NCBI GenBank assembly: GCA_964503265.1
Contig: CAZCYO010000001.1
Span: 162,064-226,063, forward strand
Direction of reading: 5' to 3'
DNA from: an uncultured Gammaproteobacteria bacterium
Lineage (GTDB): Bacteria > Patescibacteriota > Microgenomatia > Levybacterales > UBA12049
DNA: 64,000 nt
Under the pieces are notes generated by a model, which was given only the letters and a program-made list of their open reading frames with translations, did not search any database and was not told the origin of the DNA. Of this stretch, positions 21,323 through 46,386 are shown one piece after another. A program made the position numbers and the translations under genes. Within the stretch, counting starts at the first letter, position 1. Every line of letters begins with the position of its first letter.

Positions 21323-21386
21323 TGTCATCCGCCAGCTGGCGGAGCTATTTTTAATACTGGATCTCCGATCAGGTCGGGGATGACAA
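21323..21386. mobile_element. short (~64 bp) MITE/RPE-like repeat copy with TGTCATCC ... GGATGACA termini
   Basis: Left end TGTCATCCgccagctggcgg, right end gatctccgatcaggtcgggGATGACAa; homologous to 32892-33016 ends. Confidence 0.5.
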
Positions 21387-31943: not shown

Positions 31944-32888
31944 ATGGCAGATCAAAAGAAAATTATGGTGACCGGAGCATTCGGTCAAATCGGTTCAGAG
32001 CTTGTTCCAGCACTCCAAGCACAGTATGGAAAAGAAAATGTAATCGCTGTGGGACATAAAAATATTCCTGAAGAATTTGAAGGAATTGTTGAGACGCTTG
32101 AGATAAATGATCATGCTGCAGTCACCTCAGTCATTGAAAAACATCAAATAAATACAATGTATCATCTCGTTTCACTTCTCTCTGCTCGCGGTGAAGTCGA
32201 TCCATCACTCACTTGGAAAATTAATATGGATGGCCTGAAGTCTGTTCTGGATCTCGCAGTTGAAAAGAATATGCAGATGTTCTGGCCTTCATCAATCGCT
32301 GCATTCGGTCCTAGTACTCCGGCAGATAACACTCCACAGCGAACAGTACTTGAGCCAACTACCATGTATGGTGTCACGAAGGTCTCAGGAGAGCTGATGG
32401 CTCAATATTATCATTTAAAATACGGACTTGATATTAGAAGTGTTCGCTATCCTGGAATTATTAGTTGGAAGCAGGAACCTGCTGGTGGAACGACAGATTA
32501 TGCAGTTGCTGTATTCTATGAAGCACTTCGAAAAGGGTCATACGAATTCTTTGTTCGAGAAGATACTGTTCTGCCCATGATGTATATGGACGATGCTGTT
32601 CGTGCGACGATCGGGCTTATGGAGGCAGATCCGAGTAATTTAACTGTTCGAACAAGTTATAACATCGCTGCTATTAGTTTTAAAGCTTCAGAACTTGCTG
32701 CTGAGATTAAAAAAAGAATGCCACTTGAAGTCACCTATGCACCTGATCATAGACAGAAGATCGCTGATTCCTGGCCGAAATCACTTGATGATTCAACTGC
32801 GAGAAGTGACTGGGGATGGAAGCATGAATTTGATTTGGTTAAAATGACGGATGTGATGCTTGAAAACCTCACGAAGAAACTTAAGTAG
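31944..32888 (+). CDS. tdh: NAD-dependent epimerase/dehydratase-family L-threonine 3-dehydrogenase (SDR-type TDH)
   Basis: Rossmann MVTGAFGQIGSEL, YxxxK (YGVTK); adjacent kbl gene supports the tdh assignment; ATG at 31944 preferred over the ORF-track TTG at 31899. Confidence 0.55.
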   Translation: MADQKKIMVTGAFGQIGSELVPALQAQYGKENVIAVGHKNIPEEFEGIVETLEINDHAAVTSVIEKHQINTMYHLVSLLSARGEVDPSLTWKINMDGLKSVLDLAVEKNMQMFWPSSIAAFGPSTPADNTPQRTVLEPTTMYGVTKVSGELMAQYYHLKYGLDIRSVRYPGIISWKQEPAGGTTDYAVAVFYEALRKGSYEFFVREDTVLPMMYMDDAVRATIGLMEADPSNLTVRTSYNIAAISFKASELAAEIKKRMPLEVTYAPDHRQKIADSWPKSLDDSTARSDWGWKHEFDLVKMTDVMLENLTKKLK

Positions 32889-32891
32889 TAT

Positions 32892-33016
32892 TTGTCATCC
32901 TGGAATCCCGAAGATCATCGGGATGGATAGGATCTCATAAAGTGGGATTCTATCGCTTTGCTCCAGAATGACAGTAGGAATTATCTAATAGATTCCCGAT
33001 CAGGTCGGGAATGACA
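32892..33016. mobile_element. full-length (~125 bp) MITE/RPE-like element with TTGTCATCC ... GGAATGACAA termini and two tcccga-N-tcggga hairpins
   Basis: Left TTGTCATCCtggaATCCCGAagatcaTCGGGAT; internal segment homologous to the ileS-internal copy; right end agatTCCCGAtcaggTCGGGAATGACAA; lies in the tdh-kbl intergenic region. Confidence 0.55.
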
Positions 33017-33043
33017 AACTAGACCCAGTATTTTAAATAAAGT

Positions 33044-34300
33044 ATGGCGAAACAAACTTTTATTGACTCATTAATAGCTGAAGTGGCTCGAATTGACGGG
33101 GCTGGGGTAGCGAAACGTAATGAAGTTATTATTGAAGGGTTTACTTCGGATCATGCCCCTCAGGCGATTATAGATGGTAAAAATTACCGAATATTTAATT
33201 CAAATGATTATTTAGGGCTCCGACTTTCTCCTGAACTTGCTAAAGCAGAGGAAGAAGCGACAGAGAAATATGGTGTGGGTCCTGGTGCTGTTCGATTTAT
33301 TTCAGGGACATTACAAGTTTATAAAGATCTAGAAGCTGCTGTGGCGAAATTTCATGGGAGGGACGATGCGATGGTCTTTTCATCTGCATTTGCGGCAAAT
33401 ATCGCAGTTTTGTCATGTTTTTTAAATAAACAAAGCAGAGATTCTGTCATGTCAGATAGTGTGGCTGTTATTTCAGATGAATTAAATCACCGAAGTATTA
33501 TCGATGGTGTACGTACTGCGAGCATTGAGAAAACGCAGAAATTTATTTATCGACATCTCGATTTTACGCATTTGGCTGAAGTGCTTGAAGCAAATAAAGG
33601 TAATTTCAAACGTGCTGTTGTCGTAACCGACGGGATATTTAGTATGATCGGGGAATATACGGATCTTAAGAAATTAAAAGAAGTGACAGATCGGTATGAT
33701 AGTGAATATGAAGAGGGAGTAATGGTAGTTGTGGATGATAGTCATGGTGTTGGGGCATTTGGTCCAACCGGTCGTGGATGTGAGGATGTTACAAATACAA
33801 AAGTAGATATCGTGGTAGGGACATTTGGAAAAGCATTTGGGTGTGATGGAGGATATGTGGTTGGCGATCAAGCGTTTATGGATTATCTTCGCGAATCAGC
33901 TGCTACATATATTTACTCTAATTCTGTTTCACCTGGAGTTGCTGGGTCAGCACTCGCATCAGTCACGACTGTGGCTAGTGAAAAAGGGAAAGAATTACTT
34001 AGTACACTTCAGAAAAATATCGCTCTTTTTAAAGAAGAAATCGCGAAAACGAAATTTGAATTTGCTGCGCAGTCGATACATCCTATTCAACCAGTGCTAA
34101 TAGGTGATGCGATGAAAACGAAAGAACTTAAAAAAGCATTATTTGACCGTGGTATACTCGTTACAAATATTAATTATCCAGTAGTTGCAAAAGGGAGAGA
34201 TGAAATTCGAGTACAAATTAACGCTTCTCATTCAGAGGAAGATATACGATTTTTTGTACAGCAATTGACAGCCGCTGGACGTGAAATGGGCCTCATATAA
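33044..34300 (+). CDS. kbl: glycine C-acetyltransferase (2-amino-3-ketobutyrate CoA ligase), class II PLP aminotransferase
   Basis: NYLGL, VRFISGT, PLP-lysine region GTFGKAFGCDGGYV; synteny with tdh. Confidence 0.7.
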   Translation: MAKQTFIDSLIAEVARIDGAGVAKRNEVIIEGFTSDHAPQAIIDGKNYRIFNSNDYLGLRLSPELAKAEEEATEKYGVGPGAVRFISGTLQVYKDLEAAVAKFHGRDDAMVFSSAFAANIAVLSCFLNKQSRDSVMSDSVAVISDELNHRSIIDGVRTASIEKTQKFIYRHLDFTHLAEVLEANKGNFKRAVVVTDGIFSMIGEYTDLKKLKEVTDRYDSEYEEGVMVVVDDSHGVGAFGPTGRGCEDVTNTKVDIVVGTFGKAFGCDGGYVVGDQAFMDYLRESAATYIYSNSVSPGVAGSALASVTTVASEKGKELLSTLQKNIALFKEEIAKTKFEFAAQSIHPIQPVLIGDAMKTKELKKALFDRGILVTNINYPVVAKGRDEIRVQINASHSEEDIRFFVQQLTAAGREMGLI

Positions 34301-37168: not shown

Positions 37169-37177
37169 CAATATCTA

Positions 37178-37290
37178 TAAGCACCGTCGCGGTGTAACCG
37201 AGCAGTGATCCTTACTTCTGGACAATGGCGTCCATGAGGCGAGAACTCAGCTTCGGTTGCATAAACCAAAGCGGTGCTTTCTCGTTTTAG
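37178..37290 (+). terminator. module 0 structured terminator: AAGCACCG ... CGGTGCTT closing stem enclosing ~85 nt, then TCTCGTTTTAG
   Basis: Same GCACC/GGTGC closing helix with covarying flanks is found after modules A-D. Confidence 0.55.
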
Positions 37291-38949: not shown

Positions 38950-38958
38950 CCAAACAAT

Positions 38959-39071
38959 AAGCACCGTGGAGGTGTAACCGAGCAAAGTAGCTCATCAACG
39001 GACAACGGCGTCCATGAGATTGGCACTTAGCTACGGTTACCTAAACCTAAGCGGTGCTTTCTCATTTTTAG
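38959..39071 (+). terminator. module B structured terminator: AAGCACCG ... CGGTGCTT + TCTCATTTTTAG
   Basis: Near-identical in organisation to the module 0 terminator (shared internal ggtgtaaccgagca and ggacaa-ggcgtccatgag). Confidence 0.55.
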
Positions 39072-39727: not shown

Positions 39728-39877
39728 ATGCCCCCGTTCAACGTAGTTATTGCTATCGTAATTGTAGCTCTCGTGGCTACATTCGCGATAAGCCGTGATC
39801 TATGGCCAGCTCTCGGAGTGTTCGTTGGAGGAATTCTCATTCTGTTGTGGTGCAATAGACACCGTCCACAGAATTAA
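39728..39877 (+). CDS. island module C: two-TM mini-membrane protein (49 aa)
   Basis: SD GAGGAGG before ATG at 39728; paralogous to 40630 ORF; ORF-track 39581 extension is unsupported. Confidence 0.5.
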   Translation: MPPFNVVIAIVIVALVATFAISRDLWPALGVFVGGILILLWCNRHRPQN

Positions 39878-39913
39878 ATTTCCTTACTTTTTCCGTAATG
39901 GTTATCGTGCCTT

Positions 39914-39978
39914 AAGCACCCCGATACGTTTCCAGTGATGGGAATTTCCGAAAGGATAGGGGTGCTTTCTCATTTTTA
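39914..39978 (+). terminator. module C structured terminator: AAGCACCCC ... GGGGTGCTT + TCTCATTTTTAT
   Basis: Compensatory change (CG to CC/GG) relative to modules 0 and B. Confidence 0.55.
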
Positions 39979-40020
39979 TATCCTCAATTCATTGAAACCT
40001 ATAGTTTGATTATTTCTCAT

Positions 40021-41155: not shown

Positions 41156-44032
41156 ATGGCTCACGAGATAACATTTGATGCAGTAACCCCGAAAGTAAAT
41201 TTTCCTGAAATGGAAGAAGAGACACTTTCTTACTGGAAAGAAAACCGTATTTTTGAAAAATCACTTGAAAAAGATTCCCCTAAAGGTGACTGGACATTTT
41301 TAGATGGTCCACCTTTTGTCACAGGACTTCCACACTATGGTCATATTTTAGGCAGTATCGCGAAAGATTTATTCCCTCGTTTTAAAACGATGCAGGGATA
41401 TCACGTCAGACGTGTATGGGGATGGGATGGGCACGGACTACCGATTGAAAATAAAGTCGAGAATAAGCTTGAAATAAAACGTAAAAAAGATATCGAAGAA
41501 ATCGTCGGAGTAGCGAAATTTATCGAAGAATGTAAAACATATGTGAATGAAGTATCAGGAGAGTGGGAATGGTACATCGATCATATCGCGCGTTGGGTAG
41601 ATTTTAAAAATGCATACAAAACCTGGGATACACCATACATGGAATCTGTCATGTGGGTGTTTAAACAGATGTATGAAAAAGGATATGTCTATAAAGGACT
41701 TCGCGTTTCTCTCTACTGTCCTCACTGTTCAACACCTATTTCTAACTTCGAAGTCGCGATGGATGCAGACAATTATAAAGAAATTATCGACGCAGCTACC
41801 ACATACAAGTATGAATTAGTAGGTGAAAATAATACCTATATTCTTGCTTGGTCGACAACTCCTTGGAATAAAATCGTTACTCCAGCCCTGGCCGTAAATC
41901 CAAAACTCACCTATGTAAAAGTGATACAGGGTGAAGAACTGTATATTTTAGCTGAATCCACTATCAAGACGATTCAAGGGGAATATGAAGTAATTGAAAA
42001 GATGCAGGGAGCTGACTTAGTAGGAAAGAAATTCGTGCCTCATTATGATTATTATAAAATTGCAGAGGGTGAGAAAGCCTTTGAAATTATCCCTGGAGAT
42101 TTCGTGACAGCAGAGGAGGGAACTGGCGTTGTCACAATCGCTGCCTACGGTGAAGAGGATTTGAAAGTAATGAACGAATATAATGTTCATATCGAACTTC
42201 ATGTCGATGAGGAAGGTACAATTAAATCCGACGTGCCGATGTTTGGTGGGATGTATTATTTAAAGGCAAACAAAGCAGTTAATGCAGATTTAGCAGAACG
42301 AGGGCTTGTCTATCGTGATGAAGATTTGCCACACAATGTTCCACTCTGCTGGAGATGTCACACCAGGCTCTACTATGCTCCACAAAATGCGTGGTATGTA
42401 AATGTACAGATACTTAAAGATCAACTGAAAAAAACAAATAAAGATATTAACTGGGTTCCATCTCACTTTAAAACTGGACGCTTTCAGAAAAGTATCGAAG
42501 CAGCACCAGACTGGTGTATATCACGAAATAGATACTGGGGTTCACCGGTTCCAGTGTGGGAATGTATGTGTGGAGAGCGATTCGTTCCAGGATCGATTGC
42601 TGAACTAGAAACGGCAAGTGGACGAAAAATAAAAGACTTACATAAGCCAGAAATAGACGAAGTAACAGTTCCGTGTAAAAAATGTGATCAAACCATGCAT
42701 AGAGTACCAGAAGTACTCGATAGTTGGATTGAGGCTGGGTCTGCAGCTTTTGCAGAACGTCACTTTCCATTTGAAGGAATCACTGATCCTAGCGAATTCT
42801 TCCCATCAGATTTTATCGTCGAATATACAGGACAGATTCGCGCATGGTTCTATGTATTACATGTTATTTCAAATGCAATTTACGGTGAAAAAGCATTTAA
42901 AAATGTCGCTGTTACTGGAGTAATACTTGGAACTGATGGACGAAAGATGAGTAAGAATCTGGGTAATTATCCAGATCCGAAGGAACTTATGAAAGAGTAT
43001 GGAGGAGACGCACTCAGACTCTATCTCATGAGTAGTCCTGTGATTCGTGGTGAGGATGCGATTATATCTGCTGAAGCATATCGACAGGAAGTACGAGGAC
43101 TCATGCTTATTTTATGGAATGTCTATAACTTCTTTATTAGTTATGCTCTTATTGATGGCTGGACTCCTGATCGTCATCCTGGAAAAGCAACGACTTTGAT
43201 AGGATCTCACAAGAATGGAGATTCTATCGCTGCGCTCCAGAATGACAATGTTTTAGATCAATGGATCATATCTCTTCAGAATACGTTGATTAAAGAAGTC
43301 ACTGAGTGTTTAGAAAAATATGATACGGTAACTTCAATCGCGAAATTGCATGAATTCGTTAATGACCTTTCGACATGGTATTTACGACGAAGTCGAGATC
43401 GTGTGGGACCAAGTGCGATGGATACACATGACAGAGAAGCGTTTTATGTAACCATGTATGAAGTACTGACCACACTATGTCGTGTGATGGCGCCGTTCAC
43501 ACCATTTTTAGCAGATGAAATGTATATGAATTTAACGAAAGAAGAGTCTGTGCATTTAGCATCATGGCCTGAGTATAAAGAAGAACTAATTAACAAACAG
43601 CTTAACGAAGAAATGAATGTGGTTCGTAAAATTGTCGAGATAGGACATGCGAAACGAAAAGAAACAGGTTTTAAAGTTAGACAGCCACTAAATAATTGTC
43701 AAATATCAAATGTCCAATATCCAATATCCAAAGAGATGATGCAGTTGCTTAAGGATGAACTAAACGTAAAAGAAATAGAATTTACTTTAGGAGAAGAAGA
43801 AATAGATGTTATTTTCGACATTGTGTTAACACCTGAGCTTAAAGCTGAGGGGGAGGCGCGGGATATCGTTAGAAAGATTCAAGAAGAAAGAAAGATGATC
43901 GGAACGACGCTTGATGCGAAAGTGAATGTGACGATTCCTGAGTATCCTGAAAGTTTTGTGGAGTATATTAAACAGAATGCACTAGTTGAAATAATTTCAA
44001 AAGGGGAGTTTAAGGTAGAGAAAGTTGGGTAG
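41156..44032 (+). CDS. ileS: isoleucyl-tRNA synthetase, eukaryote-like type 2
   Basis: HIGH variant PHYGH, GWDGHGLPIE, KMSKN motif GRKMSKNLGNYPDP; N-terminus typical of type 2 IleRS; TACAAT 7 nt before ATG, no SD. Confidence 0.85.
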   Translation: MAHEITFDAVTPKVNFPEMEEETLSYWKENRIFEKSLEKDSPKGDWTFLDGPPFVTGLPHYGHILGSIAKDLFPRFKTMQGYHVRRVWGWDGHGLPIENKVENKLEIKRKKDIEEIVGVAKFIEECKTYVNEVSGEWEWYIDHIARWVDFKNAYKTWDTPYMESVMWVFKQMYEKGYVYKGLRVSLYCPHCSTPISNFEVAMDADNYKEIIDAATTYKYELVGENNTYILAWSTTPWNKIVTPALAVNPKLTYVKVIQGEELYILAESTIKTIQGEYEVIEKMQGADLVGKKFVPHYDYYKIAEGEKAFEIIPGDFVTAEEGTGVVTIAAYGEEDLKVMNEYNVHIELHVDEEGTIKSDVPMFGGMYYLKANKAVNADLAERGLVYRDEDLPHNVPLCWRCHTRLYYAPQNAWYVNVQILKDQLKKTNKDINWVPSHFKTGRFQKSIEAAPDWCISRNRYWGSPVPVWECMCGERFVPGSIAELETASGRKIKDLHKPEIDEVTVPCKKCDQTMHRVPEVLDSWIEAGSAAFAERHFPFEGITDPSEFFPSDFIVEYTGQIRAWFYVLHVISNAIYGEKAFKNVAVTGVILGTDGRKMSKNLGNYPDPKELMKEYGGDALRLYLMSSPVIRGEDAIISAEAYRQEVRGLMLILWNVYNFFISYALIDGWTPDRHPGKATTLIGSHKNGDSIAALQNDNVLDQWIISLQNTLIKEVTECLEKYDTVTSIAKLHEFVNDLSTWYLRRSRDRVGPSAMDTHDREAFYVTMYEVLTTLCRVMAPFTPFLADEMYMNLTKEESVHLASWPEYKEELINKQLNEEMNVVRKIVEIGHAKRKETGFKVRQPLNNCQISNVQYPISKEMMQLLKDELNVKEIEFTLGEEEIDVIFDIVLTPELKAEGEARDIVRKIQEERKMIGTTLDAKVNVTIPEYPESFVEYIKQNALVEIISKGEFKVEKVG
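43172..43248 (+). mobile_element. ~77 bp copy of the TGTCATCC/GAATGACA repeat family inserted in-frame within ileS (encodes ~RHPGKATTLIGSHKNGDSIAALQNDN)
   Basis: cGTCATCCtggaa...ataggatctcacaagaatggagattctatcgctgcgctccaGAATGACAa is ~85% identical over ~50 nt to the internal part of the 32892-33016 element. Confidence 0.6.
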
Positions 44033-44040
44033 TTAGCGAC

Positions 44041-44097
44041 AAGCTTCATGACTCAAATTTCAATAAAACCCTCTGCATCTTGAAGCTTTTATTTGTG
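44041..44097 (+). terminator. ileS terminator: aagcttca/tgaagctt 8-bp closing stem around a 32-nt loop, then TTTTATTTGTG
   Basis: Inverted repeat plus T-tract immediately after the ileS stop. Confidence 0.45.
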
Positions 44098-44106
44098 AGA
44101 TTCTTA

Positions 44107-44132
44107 CGTCACTTCGTTCCTCAGAATGACAC
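44107..44132. repeat. degenerate short copy of the repeat family (CGTCAC ... cagaATGACAc)
   Basis: gtcacttcgttcctcagaatgacactag resembles ctccagaatgacagtagg of the full element. Confidence 0.3.
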
Positions 44133-45927: not shown

Positions 45928-46344
45928 ATGAAATTTGCAGTAATTAAAACAGGGGGAAAACAATATCGCGTGTCTGAGGGCGATGTTATAACCGTTGAAA
46001 GACTTGAAAATCCACAGAGTGAGCTTGTGACTTTTTCTGAAGTGCTTCTTATGGCTGATGGAGACGTAGTAACGATTGGTAAACCACTCGTTAGCGGCAT
46101 GACAGTGAGCGGAGTAGTCATAGAACATCCAAAAGGAGAGAAAATTCGTGTTTCACAATATAAAGCAAAAGCACGATTCCGACGGGTTAATGGACATCGA
46201 CAAGCTCTCACTACTGTTCGAATTGATATGATCGGAAATACAAAAGTATCAGGAGTATCAAAAGCTGAAGTAGTTAAAGAAGATACCGTAAGTACAATGA
46301 CACCACCTGTTAAGAAACCAGCTCGAGCTAAAAAAGCTGAGTAA
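45928..46344 (+). CDS. rplU: 50S ribosomal protein bL21 with Lys/Ala-rich C-terminal extension
   Basis: MKFAVIKTGGKQYRVSEGDVI...; 138 aa vs ~103 typical. Confidence 0.9.
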   Translation: MKFAVIKTGGKQYRVSEGDVITVERLENPQSELVTFSEVLLMADGDVVTIGKPLVSGMTVSGVVIEHPKGEKIRVSQYKAKARFRRVNGHRQALTTVRIDMIGNTKVSGVSKAEVVKEDTVSTMTPPVKKPARAKKAE

Positions 46345-46347
46345 GGG

Positions 46348-46386
46348 ACGATCTTATAGATCCTCGATCAGGTCGAGGATGACAGG
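46348..46386. repeat. right-hand sub-element of the repeat family (hairpin cctcga-tcagg-tcgagg + GATGACA), directly after rplU stop
   Basis: atagatCCTCGAtcaggTCGAGGATGACAgg vs atagatTCCCGAtcaggTCGGGAATGACAa at 32985-33016: stem changes are compensatory. Confidence 0.5.

Follow-up and report, generated by a model that had tools for sequence, protein, structure and literature searches.

How does a gene for an essential aminoacyl-tRNA synthetase come to contain, within its open reading frame (ORF), a copy of a repeat that also occurs between genes? The question is raised by ileS, the isoleucyl-tRNA synthetase (IleRS) gene in a 64,000-nt stretch of contig CAZCYO010000001.1, which is assigned to the Levybacterales within the Patescibacteriota, also termed candidate phyla radiation (CPR). 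The whole stretch is referred to as the window in the following; its G+C content is 37%. According to a sequence-only reading of this DNA, a mobile intergenic repeat had been inserted in frame into ileS, and this view is borne out by a significant nucleotide match, by a closest ortholog without the segment and by its position in a surface loop. We consider it probable (about 0.85) that the segment is a non-autonomous palindromic repeat, composed of two inverted CGTC-tagged hairpins of the repetitive extragenic palindrome (REP) type, which landed in a loop of the enzyme and is carried there as a passive passenger, and which derives from a nuclease-encoding cassette and from a process of repeated insertion.

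The repeat element in ileS

The host gene and the parts of the element are located as follows.

41156 to 44032, + strand: ileS, host gene, encoding a type 2 IleRS of 958 aa (single ORF)
43172 to 43247, + strand: inverted dimer of two CGTC-tagged hairpins related to REPs and to the Ssn-related motif, here designated A-type, tags outermost, in frame (blastn, fold as single-stranded DNA)
43172 to 43208, + strand: left unit with tag CGTC, stem ATCCTGGAAAAG / CTTTGATAGGAT with a tandem G.A/A.G mismatch, loop CAACGA and tail CTC (sequence)
43209 to 43217, + strand: spacer of 9 nt between the units, ACAAGAATG (sequence)
43218 to 43247, - strand: right unit with tag TGTC, stem ATTCTGGAGC / GCGATAGAAT, loop GCA and tail CTC (sequence and hairpin scan)

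The named IleRS proteins which match the window protein with 65-69% identity are labelled (Candidatus) Levybacteria or Patescibacteria, and orthologs with 83% identity contain the domains tRNA-synt_1, Anticodon_1 and DUF5915. Sequence comparison with the PDB, which gave E values of about 1e-193 for type 2 and eukaryote-like structures and of 1e-78 to 1e-86 for type 1 structures, confirms the assignment as type 2 enzyme.

The element has a length of 76 nt. Its start had been placed correctly at 43172, but its terminal GAATGACA ends at 43247 rather than at 43248, the TGTC tag of the right unit being located at 43247-43244 on the minus strand. The CGTC tag begins exactly at codon 673, and the element codes for residues R673-D697 (RHPGKATTLIGSHKNGDSIAALQND). 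As had been read from the sequence, the segment is situated between the conserved IDGWTP and LDQWIIS blocks (...IDGWTPD on one side, NVLDQWIIS on the other), and the reading frame stays open across it, the inserted frame being free of stop codons.

When 43172-43248 was compared with the window by blastn, it matched the intergenic positions 32894-32973 with 78% identity over 82 columns including gaps; with an E value of 2.2e-11, the similarity holds up as significant. An identity of about 85% over about 50 nt to an element at 32892-33016 had been reported; this applies to the central and 3' part only and not to the whole element. The ungapped blocks show 80% identity (41 nt) and 74% identity (31 nt). 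The statement that both copies have the same start and end is accurate: their termini are identical, CTCCAGAATGACA forming the end of both, and the window contains GTCATCCTGGAA at two positions only, 32894 and 43173 (chance expectation 0.25 with up to one mismatch). A-type copies from unrelated metagenome contigs are 82-86% identical to the ileS element. Each of the two units can fold alone, or both halves can pair into a single long hairpin; as single-stranded DNA, the two strands of the element reach -13.7 and -14.8 kcal/mol (z -3.1 and -3.9 versus shuffled sequences). Both the length and the sequence of the spacer differ from copy to copy.

Lineage specificity and position in the enzyme

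The window IleRS was compared with 120 orthologs (121 sequences in total), from which a neighbour-joining tree was constructed. The distance between the conserved tryptophan and the (N)xLD motif amounts to about 10-15 residues in most of the 120 orthologs, as had been expected for type 2 enzymes, and the same loop comprises about 15 residues in the solved type 2 structure from T. thermophilus (1ILE) and about 8 in IleRS2 of P. megaterium (8C8U). The alignment speaks for lineage specificity, as the closest ortholog (P0001), which is 88% identical outside the loop, has WEATEGKEVETEN at the site and lacks the element; its loop has the 7-mer GGAAAAG in common with the element, which was judged not significant as a remnant. 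The claim of about 26 extra residues is nearly right for the residues encoded by the element (25), whereas the net gain over P0001 is only 17 aa. Of the old linker, only TPD...N is left, and because the net gain is smaller than 25, the insertion was accompanied or followed by the loss of some of this linker. Another relative, P0002 (85% identical; DNA locus L002), contains a more degenerate A-type dimer at the same site, with a DNA identity of 74% and a non-significant fold (z -0.65). The ileS copies of the window and of L002 have in common the GCTGCGC variant of the right unit, and the window copy is nearer to the unrelated metagenome copies mentioned above than to the L002 copy.

In an AlphaFold2 model for which 84 sequences were used (mean predicted local distance difference test score, pLDDT, 86.5; predicted template modelling score 0.83), the insert is located in the connection between the helices 639-667 and 699-720, at the start of the anticodon-binding domain. 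Residues 675-693 represent the sole internal stretch with a pLDDT below 50 and are flanked by confident helices on both sides. The insert is predicted to form a disordered surface loop between two helices, and the suggestion that it would map to a surface loop in the anticodon-binding region is in agreement with this model.

Family membership of the element

CGTC-tagged REPs were defined by Di Nocera, De Gregorio & Rocco (2013, BMC Genomics 14:522; PMC3733652) as units consisting of a CGTC or TGTC (or CCTC) tag, a stem of 8-9 bp starting with A-T/T-A, a loop of 4-5 nt and a 3-nt tail (consensus CCA), which occur mostly as inverted dimers. In that study they were equated with dRS3 of Neisseria and with the Rickettsia palindromic elements (RPE) RPE-6 (CGTC-1) and RPE-4 (CGTC-4) of Rickettsia conorii. 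More than 50% of the intragenic copies are dimers, they encode 20-30 aa, and many are located in genes for DNA synthesis or repair; CPR bacteria were outside the survey (PMC3733652). The longer form present in Neisseria was recently renamed NTS (CGTCATTCCCGCGMAVGCGGGAATCYRG) by Chenal et al. (2025, Nat Commun 16:2388; PMC11893778), who found that NTS is bound and cut as single-stranded DNA by SsnA, a small GIY-YIG protein, that Ssn-related motifs (SRM) lie on both sides of ssnA homologs (single-domain GIY-YIG, cd10448) in various phyla, and that SRM and ssnA are associated genome-wide. Coding insertions are not discussed by these authors, and neither 'in-frame' nor 'Patescibacteria' appears in the main text (PMC11893778).

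Nine CGTC units are present in the 64-kb window, six of which form three dimers. Besides those in ileS, they are the following.

32893 to 32973, + strand: intergenic A-type dimer of 81 nt, left unit with a different inner hairpin, ATCCCGAAGATCATCGGGAT (blastn; fold of single-stranded DNA -18.5 kcal/mol, z -4.35)
32989 to 33016, - strand: single unit, here designated B-type, TGTC, ATTCCCGA-CCTGA-TCGGGAAT, CTA (8-bp stem, 5-nt loop, z -3.4)
21323 to 21385, + strand: intergenic B-type dimer, right unit at 21357-21385 (-) with an exact match to the SRM pattern
46357 to 46384, - strand: single B-type unit, starting 13 nt past the stop codon of the ORF 45928-46344 (fold, hairpin scan)
44097 to 44131, - strand: solitary degenerate CGTC unit TGTCATTCTGAGGAACGAAGTGACGTAAGAATCTC, starting 65 nt past the ileS stop codon (blastn E 0.018 to the intergenic element)

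The supposed element at 32892-33016, although a genuine intergenic match, is thus not one unit but a composite of an 81-nt dimer and a separate single hairpin. As the unit at 44097-44131 adjoins the 3' side of ileS, this gene has repeat units both within and downstream. The single B-type units at 32989-33016 and 46357-46384 are found shortly downstream of the stop codon of the preceding ORF on the + strand, which fits the known bias of REPs towards positions downstream of ORFs. A loose hairpin scan of the window was too noisy for counting units beyond those identified otherwise.

All units of the window, including both of ileS, carry a CGTC or TGTC tag. The B-type units, with a stem of 8 bp and a loop of 5 nt, fit the published CGTC geometry exactly, and the single B-type units at 32989 and 46357 differ by compensatory stem changes (CCCGA/TCGGG versus CTCGA/TCGAG). 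The stems of the A-type units of ileS begin with AT...AT and comprise 12 and 10 positions with the tandem G.A/A.G mismatch, and their loops measure 6 and 3 nt. The 3-nt tail reads CTC in the two units of ileS and CTA or CCA in those of the B-type. With nine units in 64 kb and at least 120 loci in each of two collections, the element is also multi-copy and organised as inverted dimer. Judged by this anatomy, the ileS element is a member of the CGTC-REP superfamily, in which it stands outside families 1-4 as an A-type variant. The SRM pattern (HGTCWY N0-2 YYVSBRH N0-5 WNVSBRG N0-2 RNCYNB) has one exact match in the window, at 21357-21385 (-), where 0.14 are expected; the ileS units and the remaining B-type units miss it because their stems are longer by at least 1 bp, but the GTCAT...ATC frame is still common to them.

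Among 171 distinct A-type units, the tandem mismatch is almost invariant (169/171), whereas two stem positions beyond it covary: one is occupied by G-C in 134 and A-T in 23 cases, the other by C-G in 62, G-C in 56, T-A in 20 and A-T in 12 cases. At the four positions past the mismatch, 445 of the 684 cells are paired, compared to 284 +/- 8 after shuffling of the partners, and none of 1000 shuffles reached the observed value. Accordingly, it is the hairpin rather than the sequence that is preserved, either by selection or by the copying mechanism.

Like other in-frame intragenic palindromes, the ileS element is situated within a conserved gene, keeps the frame, is missing in a close ortholog and coincides with a surface loop. 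Terminal inverted repeats of 12-13 nt are present as in MITEs (transposable elements of the miniature inverted-repeat type), but the related cassette described below encodes a GIY-YIG nuclease and no known transposase; identity with a MITE was rejected for this reason and for the lack of a target-site duplication. A known structured RNA or ribozyme was ruled out, as no meaningful Rfam family was found for the whole window at the gathering threshold or for 32850-33050 with E values up to 10. Removal of the segment as an intein or intron was ruled out as well, the segment having 76 nt, being in frame and containing neither splicing motifs nor an Rfam match.

A search for the element's termini in one genome per species, performed with a degenerate pattern, yielded at least 120 loci, among them chance or distant matches such as those in Paenibacillus and Anabaena; as the pattern is too degenerate and the matches listed are a part of all, counts per phylum are non-quantitative. 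Within the matches listed, the architecture occurs in many CPR lineages and in Proteobacteria, Bacteroidota, Firmicutes, Elusimicrobia and others, and many of the matches have a simpler form, GTCATCCTGAAC..GTTCAGGATC - spacer - GATTCCGGATC..GTCCGGAATGACA. In an alphaproteobacterial metagenome-assembled genome (MAG; L023, 4370-6195), six CGTC dimers are clustered within 1.8 kb, some of them 12 nt apart, which resembles the clusters in Neisseria and Wolbachia. An A-type dimer was also observed on a contig binned as archaeal (L029, Bathyarchaeia MAG, 585-665) and reflects either contamination of the bin or true occurrence across domains.

In-frame copies in other genes

A metagenome scan for the A-type core gave at least 120 loci, with 121 copies among the matches listed. 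Thirty of these 121 copies are located in frames that remain open over 60 aa or more to either side, compared to 44% of random 70-nt windows from the same loci; genic copies are therefore depleted, as expected under purifying selection, yet common. Ten host genes from the metagenome sample and the genome scan were confirmed by Pfam, the confirmed hosts comprising LeuRS, ArgRS, an M1 aminopeptidase, a copper P-type ATPase, UvrA, an ATP-dependent DNA ligase, a PMT-type glycosyltransferase, a ClpB-like AAA+ protein and UvrD. The prominence of repair genes agrees with that described for CGTC REPs of other phyla (PMC3733652). In the ClpB-like gene, which belongs to another Levybacteria genome, the encoded peptide (SHPGEATTSIGSPSDSIASLQNDN) is very similar to the ileS insert. 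The idea that the repeat family can add peptide segments to essential proteins is substantiated by ileS together with these hosts.

The same type of element is thus found between genes, in many unrelated genes and in many phyla, and for this reason the transfer, as reconstructed from sequence distribution, is from element to gene; ileS as the source of the intergenic copies is excluded by the same distribution.

Several inserts can accumulate in one gene: a metagenome LeuRS gene (L195:1662-4295, -) and an M1 aminopeptidase gene (L222:3050-5788, +) contain three separate repeat-derived in-frame inserts each, examples being VILGSGATPESDSGQARMT, VILEGEKRPIGSQKDSIATLQND and IDSRFRGNDSG. The gene for a UvrD/PcrA helicase of Moraniibacteria (L018:833-4228, +) harbours an intein (Pfam Intein_splicing, Hint) in addition to an in-frame CGTC dimer (CHPELVSKSNEEIPDQVRNDK).

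Recurrence at the same synthetase loop

The IleRS loop is enlarged to at least 26 aa in 10 of the 121 Levybacteria sequences. In the neighbour-joining tree, the carriers are scattered singletons whose nearest relatives are free of inserts, the exception being the window protein and P0002, which form a trio with the insert-free P0001. CGTC dimers were found in the DNA of four of the nine other carriers (L002, L123, L124 and L125). Those of L123, L124 and L125 represent another subtype (GTCATTCTGG...CCAGAATC / GATTCTGGACAAGCCAGAATGAC) and also differ in spacers and 3' reading frames; the insert of L124 is a clean addition of 66 nt relative to sister sequences. The possibility, raised as a test of the sequence-only reading, that orthologs contain the same segment therefore applies in part: related inserts do occur in the same loop of other Levybacteria IleRS proteins, but they are scattered, belong to different subfamilies and give no sign of ileS as source.

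In the LeuRS of L195, an A-type dimer is positioned between RVWKLITE and KKEMNKAIKGVTEDL, in a loop which we take to be homologous to the IleRS site, given the class Ia synthetase architecture. Repeat-derived peptides were also noticed in other loops (around aa 221, 256, 273-276 and 539) of some Levybacteria IleRS orthologs: SHPELGSGS...MPKQVRHDN back-translates to another CGTC dimer, whereas PHFAEASRGK and FDSAQGKP (once in three tandem copies) look like different repeat families.

Since the carriers are scattered, the subtypes differ and both LeuRS and other IleRS loops are targeted too, the sequence data favour repeated independent insertion, with selection filtering the inserts to permissive loops.

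GIY-YIG cassettes flanked by the same hairpins

In three genomes or contigs, an ORF for a GIY-YIG protein of about 97 aa is precisely bracketed by inverted A-type units.

L106, Saccharibacteria-labelled MAG: GIY-YIG cassette (Pfam GIY-YIG E 2.4e-12)
L149, metagenome contig: GIY-YIG cassette, start codon about 25 nt past the left unit
L246, Candidatus Levybacteria bacterium RIFCSPHIGHO2_01_FULL_36_15: GIY-YIG cassette, protein P0140

The start codon follows 1-12 nt after the left unit in L106 and L246, and the stop codon is located inside or beside the right unit in all three cassettes; in L246, the left unit ends one base ahead of the ATG and the stop codon falls in the loop of the right unit. 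In P0140, the candidate catalytic residues Y8/Y19/E66 are spaced in the same way as Y6/Y17/E64 of SsnA, the residues mutated by Chenal et al. (PMC11893778). Two of the cassettes were recovered by the DNA pattern among about 240 matches listed, and one by protein search. In the first 120 loci, L106 was the sole match among those listed when a GIY-YIG regular expression and tblastn with approximate consensus queries were used; for later searches the real L106 protein served as query. No NCBIfam family corresponds to the GIY-YIG proteins, and in the PDB only the UPF0213 structure 1ZG2 was matched (E 6e-7). Proteins related to the 97-aa protein number 4451 at E <=1e-10, many of them encoded on contigs below 2 kb, which would fit genes that are multi-copy and flanked by repeats at which assemblies break; the annotation of some as 'excinuclease ABC subunit C' is probably a misnomer for a single-domain GIY-YIG protein.

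The cassette measures about 360 bp and has the same ends as the dimer. Because units of the same subtype bracket the GIY-YIG gene in three genomes, the 76-nt dimer looks like a gene-less derivative of the cassette, which parallels the relation of REPIN doublets to RAYT genes and of MITEs to insertion sequences. By the same comparison, the nuclease may be the protein that mobilises the repeats.

Proposed history and alternative explanations

We propose that a copy of the element landed in the DNA for the loop which joins helices 639-667 and 699-720. The inserted frame would have preserved the ORF by its freedom from stop codons, and part of the old linker would have been replaced, leaving 25 element-encoded residues and the net gain of 17; IleRS presumably tolerated the insertion because the loop is solvent-exposed. 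The resulting peptide is most likely a passive, disordered passenger, the DNA hairpin being conserved and the peptide not. The family probably spread via single-stranded DNA hairpins recognised by a GIY-YIG nuclease of the Ssn type, in repeated independent insertions of which selection would have left those in a few permissive loops.

The segment might not truly belong to the organism's ileS, as repeats are a classic cause of misassembly and many public contigs with GIY-YIG genes or repeats are very short. We regard such an artefact as scarcely credible, however, because the frame is exactly kept, with the tag on a codon boundary, and because a homologous insert is found at the same site in a relative (L002) that was assembled independently, and related dimers are found there in three further assemblies; chance similarity is excluded by the blastn E value of 2e-11. 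It appears very improbable, too, that the insert is an adaptive, lineage-specific extension of IleRS which, for example, contacts tRNA or a partner protein and whose likeness to a repeat is secondary. The location in the anticodon-binding region and the intact frame kept in two related lineages would fit such a role, but the predicted disorder (pLDDT below 50), the turnover of the peptide sequence and the insert-free nearest relative argue against it: peptides differ among lineages whereas the DNA termini and the hairpin potential are common, and the same DNA element is present in unrelated proteins in several reading frames.

More weight has to be given to two alternatives that concern the number of insertions and the agent responsible for them, and several observations count against parts of the history proposed here. 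The five sequenced ileS inserts begin 3-5 codons past the conserved tryptophan, and four of them (RHPGK/RHSGK) are in the same frame; as these starts are tighter than random within a loop of about 33 nt, they may reflect a preferred target or else a common origin combined with gene conversion. For the trio of window, L002 and the intervening P0001, one gain and one loss fit as well as two gains. No direct repeat was detected beside any copy in the window, and no consistent flanking motif; the A-type stems of 10-12 bp with their mismatch exceed those of the published CGTC families 1-4 (8-9 bp); no GIY-YIG gene was found in the 64-kb window by regular expression or by tblastn with approximate consensus queries; and Ssn nucleases are not known to transpose these repeats, the study of Chenal et al. 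having established only cleavage of single-stranded DNA and an effect on natural transformation in Neisseria (PMC11893778). A single ancient insertion into the ileS of Levybacteria, inherited vertically, lost or decayed in most lineages and kept recognisable by gene conversion, would account for the common loop, the nearly identical codon position and the 5' frame RH[PS]GK in window, L123, L124 and L125, for the GCTGCGC variant in window and L002, and for an apparent half-unit remnant (DSGQARMT) in P0057. We nevertheless hold it to be unlikely: singleton carriers with insert-free sisters across the tree would require dozens of precise losses, the inserts represent different subfamilies and differ in their 3' frames, the identity of the window copy to unrelated metagenome copies (82-86%) exceeds that to the L002 ileS copy (74%), and the targeting of the homologous LeuRS loop points to permissiveness rather than ancestry. 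Somewhat less doubtful, though still the weaker option, is a mobiliser other than the GIY-YIG protein, such as a tyrosine transposase of the IS200/RAYT type, host recombination or replication slippage, with the GIY-YIG association being incidental. Di Nocera et al. identified no dedicated transposase for CGTC REPs (PMC3733652), transposition was not part of what Chenal et al. demonstrated (PMC11893778), and only three cassettes are at hand; on the other hand, the gene is precisely bracketed by inverted A-type units in 3/3 cassettes, and the published genome-wide association of SRM and ssnA points to GIY-YIG (PMC11893778). Independent insertion of a hairpin dimer, probably with the help of a GIY-YIG nuclease, is therefore the reading we prefer.

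Another repeat in the window

Apart from the CGTC units, a non-coding element of about 115 nt is present in three copies at 37177-37290, 38957-39070 and approximately 39860-39990. The first two lie at a distance of 1780 nt and show blocks of 83-93% identity. The element has a terminal stem AAGCACCG...CGGTGCTT followed by TTTCTCATTTTT and resembles a structured RNA with a terminator; it had no Rfam match at the gathering threshold.

Significance

That palindromic dimers of the REP type occur in frame in housekeeping genes has been known for Rickettsia since 2000 and for CGTC REPs in general since 2013. New are the host lineage (CPR), the hairpin variant designated A-type, the repeated use of one synthetase loop and the bracketing of GIY-YIG genes by A-type units in CPR bacteria. 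In the literature searched, no relevant CPR-specific report of intragenic repeats was found, which does not prove their absence. We lean, by a modest degree, towards the broader view that CGTC-REP/Ssn-motif dimers derived from GIY-YIG cassettes are a major, so far undescribed source of in-frame insertions across CPR/Patescibacteria proteomes, repeatedly in the same permissive loops of core enzymes (IleRS, LeuRS, ArgRS, UvrA, UvrD, DNA ligase and a ClpB-like ATPase).

If this holds true, CGTC dimers could explain part of the length variation and of the unexplained loop insertions in the CPR proteins examined. Genome-streamlined CPR bacteria are expected to purge selfish DNA, but the ileS insert shows that a repeat family lately tied to site-specific single-stranded DNA nucleases also remodels essential proteins in these ultra-small organisms. 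Such inserts inflate or confuse alignments, domain boundaries and phylogenies of CPR aminoacyl-tRNA synthetases and repair proteins, and the repeats probably fragment assemblies. Recurrent insertion sites, in turn, mark naturally permissive loops that could be useful for the engineering of tags into IleRS or LeuRS, and the bracketing of GIY-YIG genes by the same hairpins points to a specific candidate, open to testing, for the mobiliser that CGTC REPs have long lacked.

Comparison with known systems

With the CGTC REPs, the ileS element shares the C/TGTC tag, the stem starting with AT, the 3-nt tail and the arrangement as an inverted dimer that can fold into a single large hairpin. Both are placed just downstream of genes, and many of the published in-frame dimers are located in DNA repair genes, to which the hosts UvrA, UvrD and DNA ligase correspond. 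In contrast to the 8-9 bp stems and 4-5 nt loops of families 1-4, A-type units have stems of 10-12 bp with the tandem G.A/A.G mismatch and variable loops. The layout CGTCAT-stem-loop-stem-ATC-YRG of the A-type hairpin corresponds to that of NTS/SRM, as do the inverted motifs around a single-domain GIY-YIG gene of about 95 aa (L106, L149 and L246); the function tested for SsnA, however, is modulation of natural transformation in Neisseria, and no nuclease gene was found in the window. As in the REPIN/RAYT system, the replicating unit is an inverted hairpin doublet, and a single-copy gene between the same hairpins is the presumed mobiliser, but the tag is CGTC instead of GTAG and the GIY-YIG nuclease is unrelated to the IS200-like Y1 transposases.

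The similarity to Rickettsia palindromic elements, to which the sequence-only reading had drawn attention, is more than an analogy, because the anatomy of the element is that of the CGTC-REP superfamily, which includes RPE-4, RPE-6 and dRS3 (PMC3733652). According to a published summary, elements of the RPE-1 type (Ogata et al. 2000 Science; 2002 Genome Res) comprise about 150 bp and add 30-50 aa (PMC10969869), whereas the ileS element, with 76 nt and 25 aa, is of the short REP-dimer kind. The hosts differ as well, one being an obligate intracellular alphaproteobacterium and the other a free-living or episymbiotic CPR lineage. In both, a selfish palindromic DNA is found in frame within a housekeeping gene and gives rise to a surface peptide segment which is compatible with fold and function (PMC10969869).

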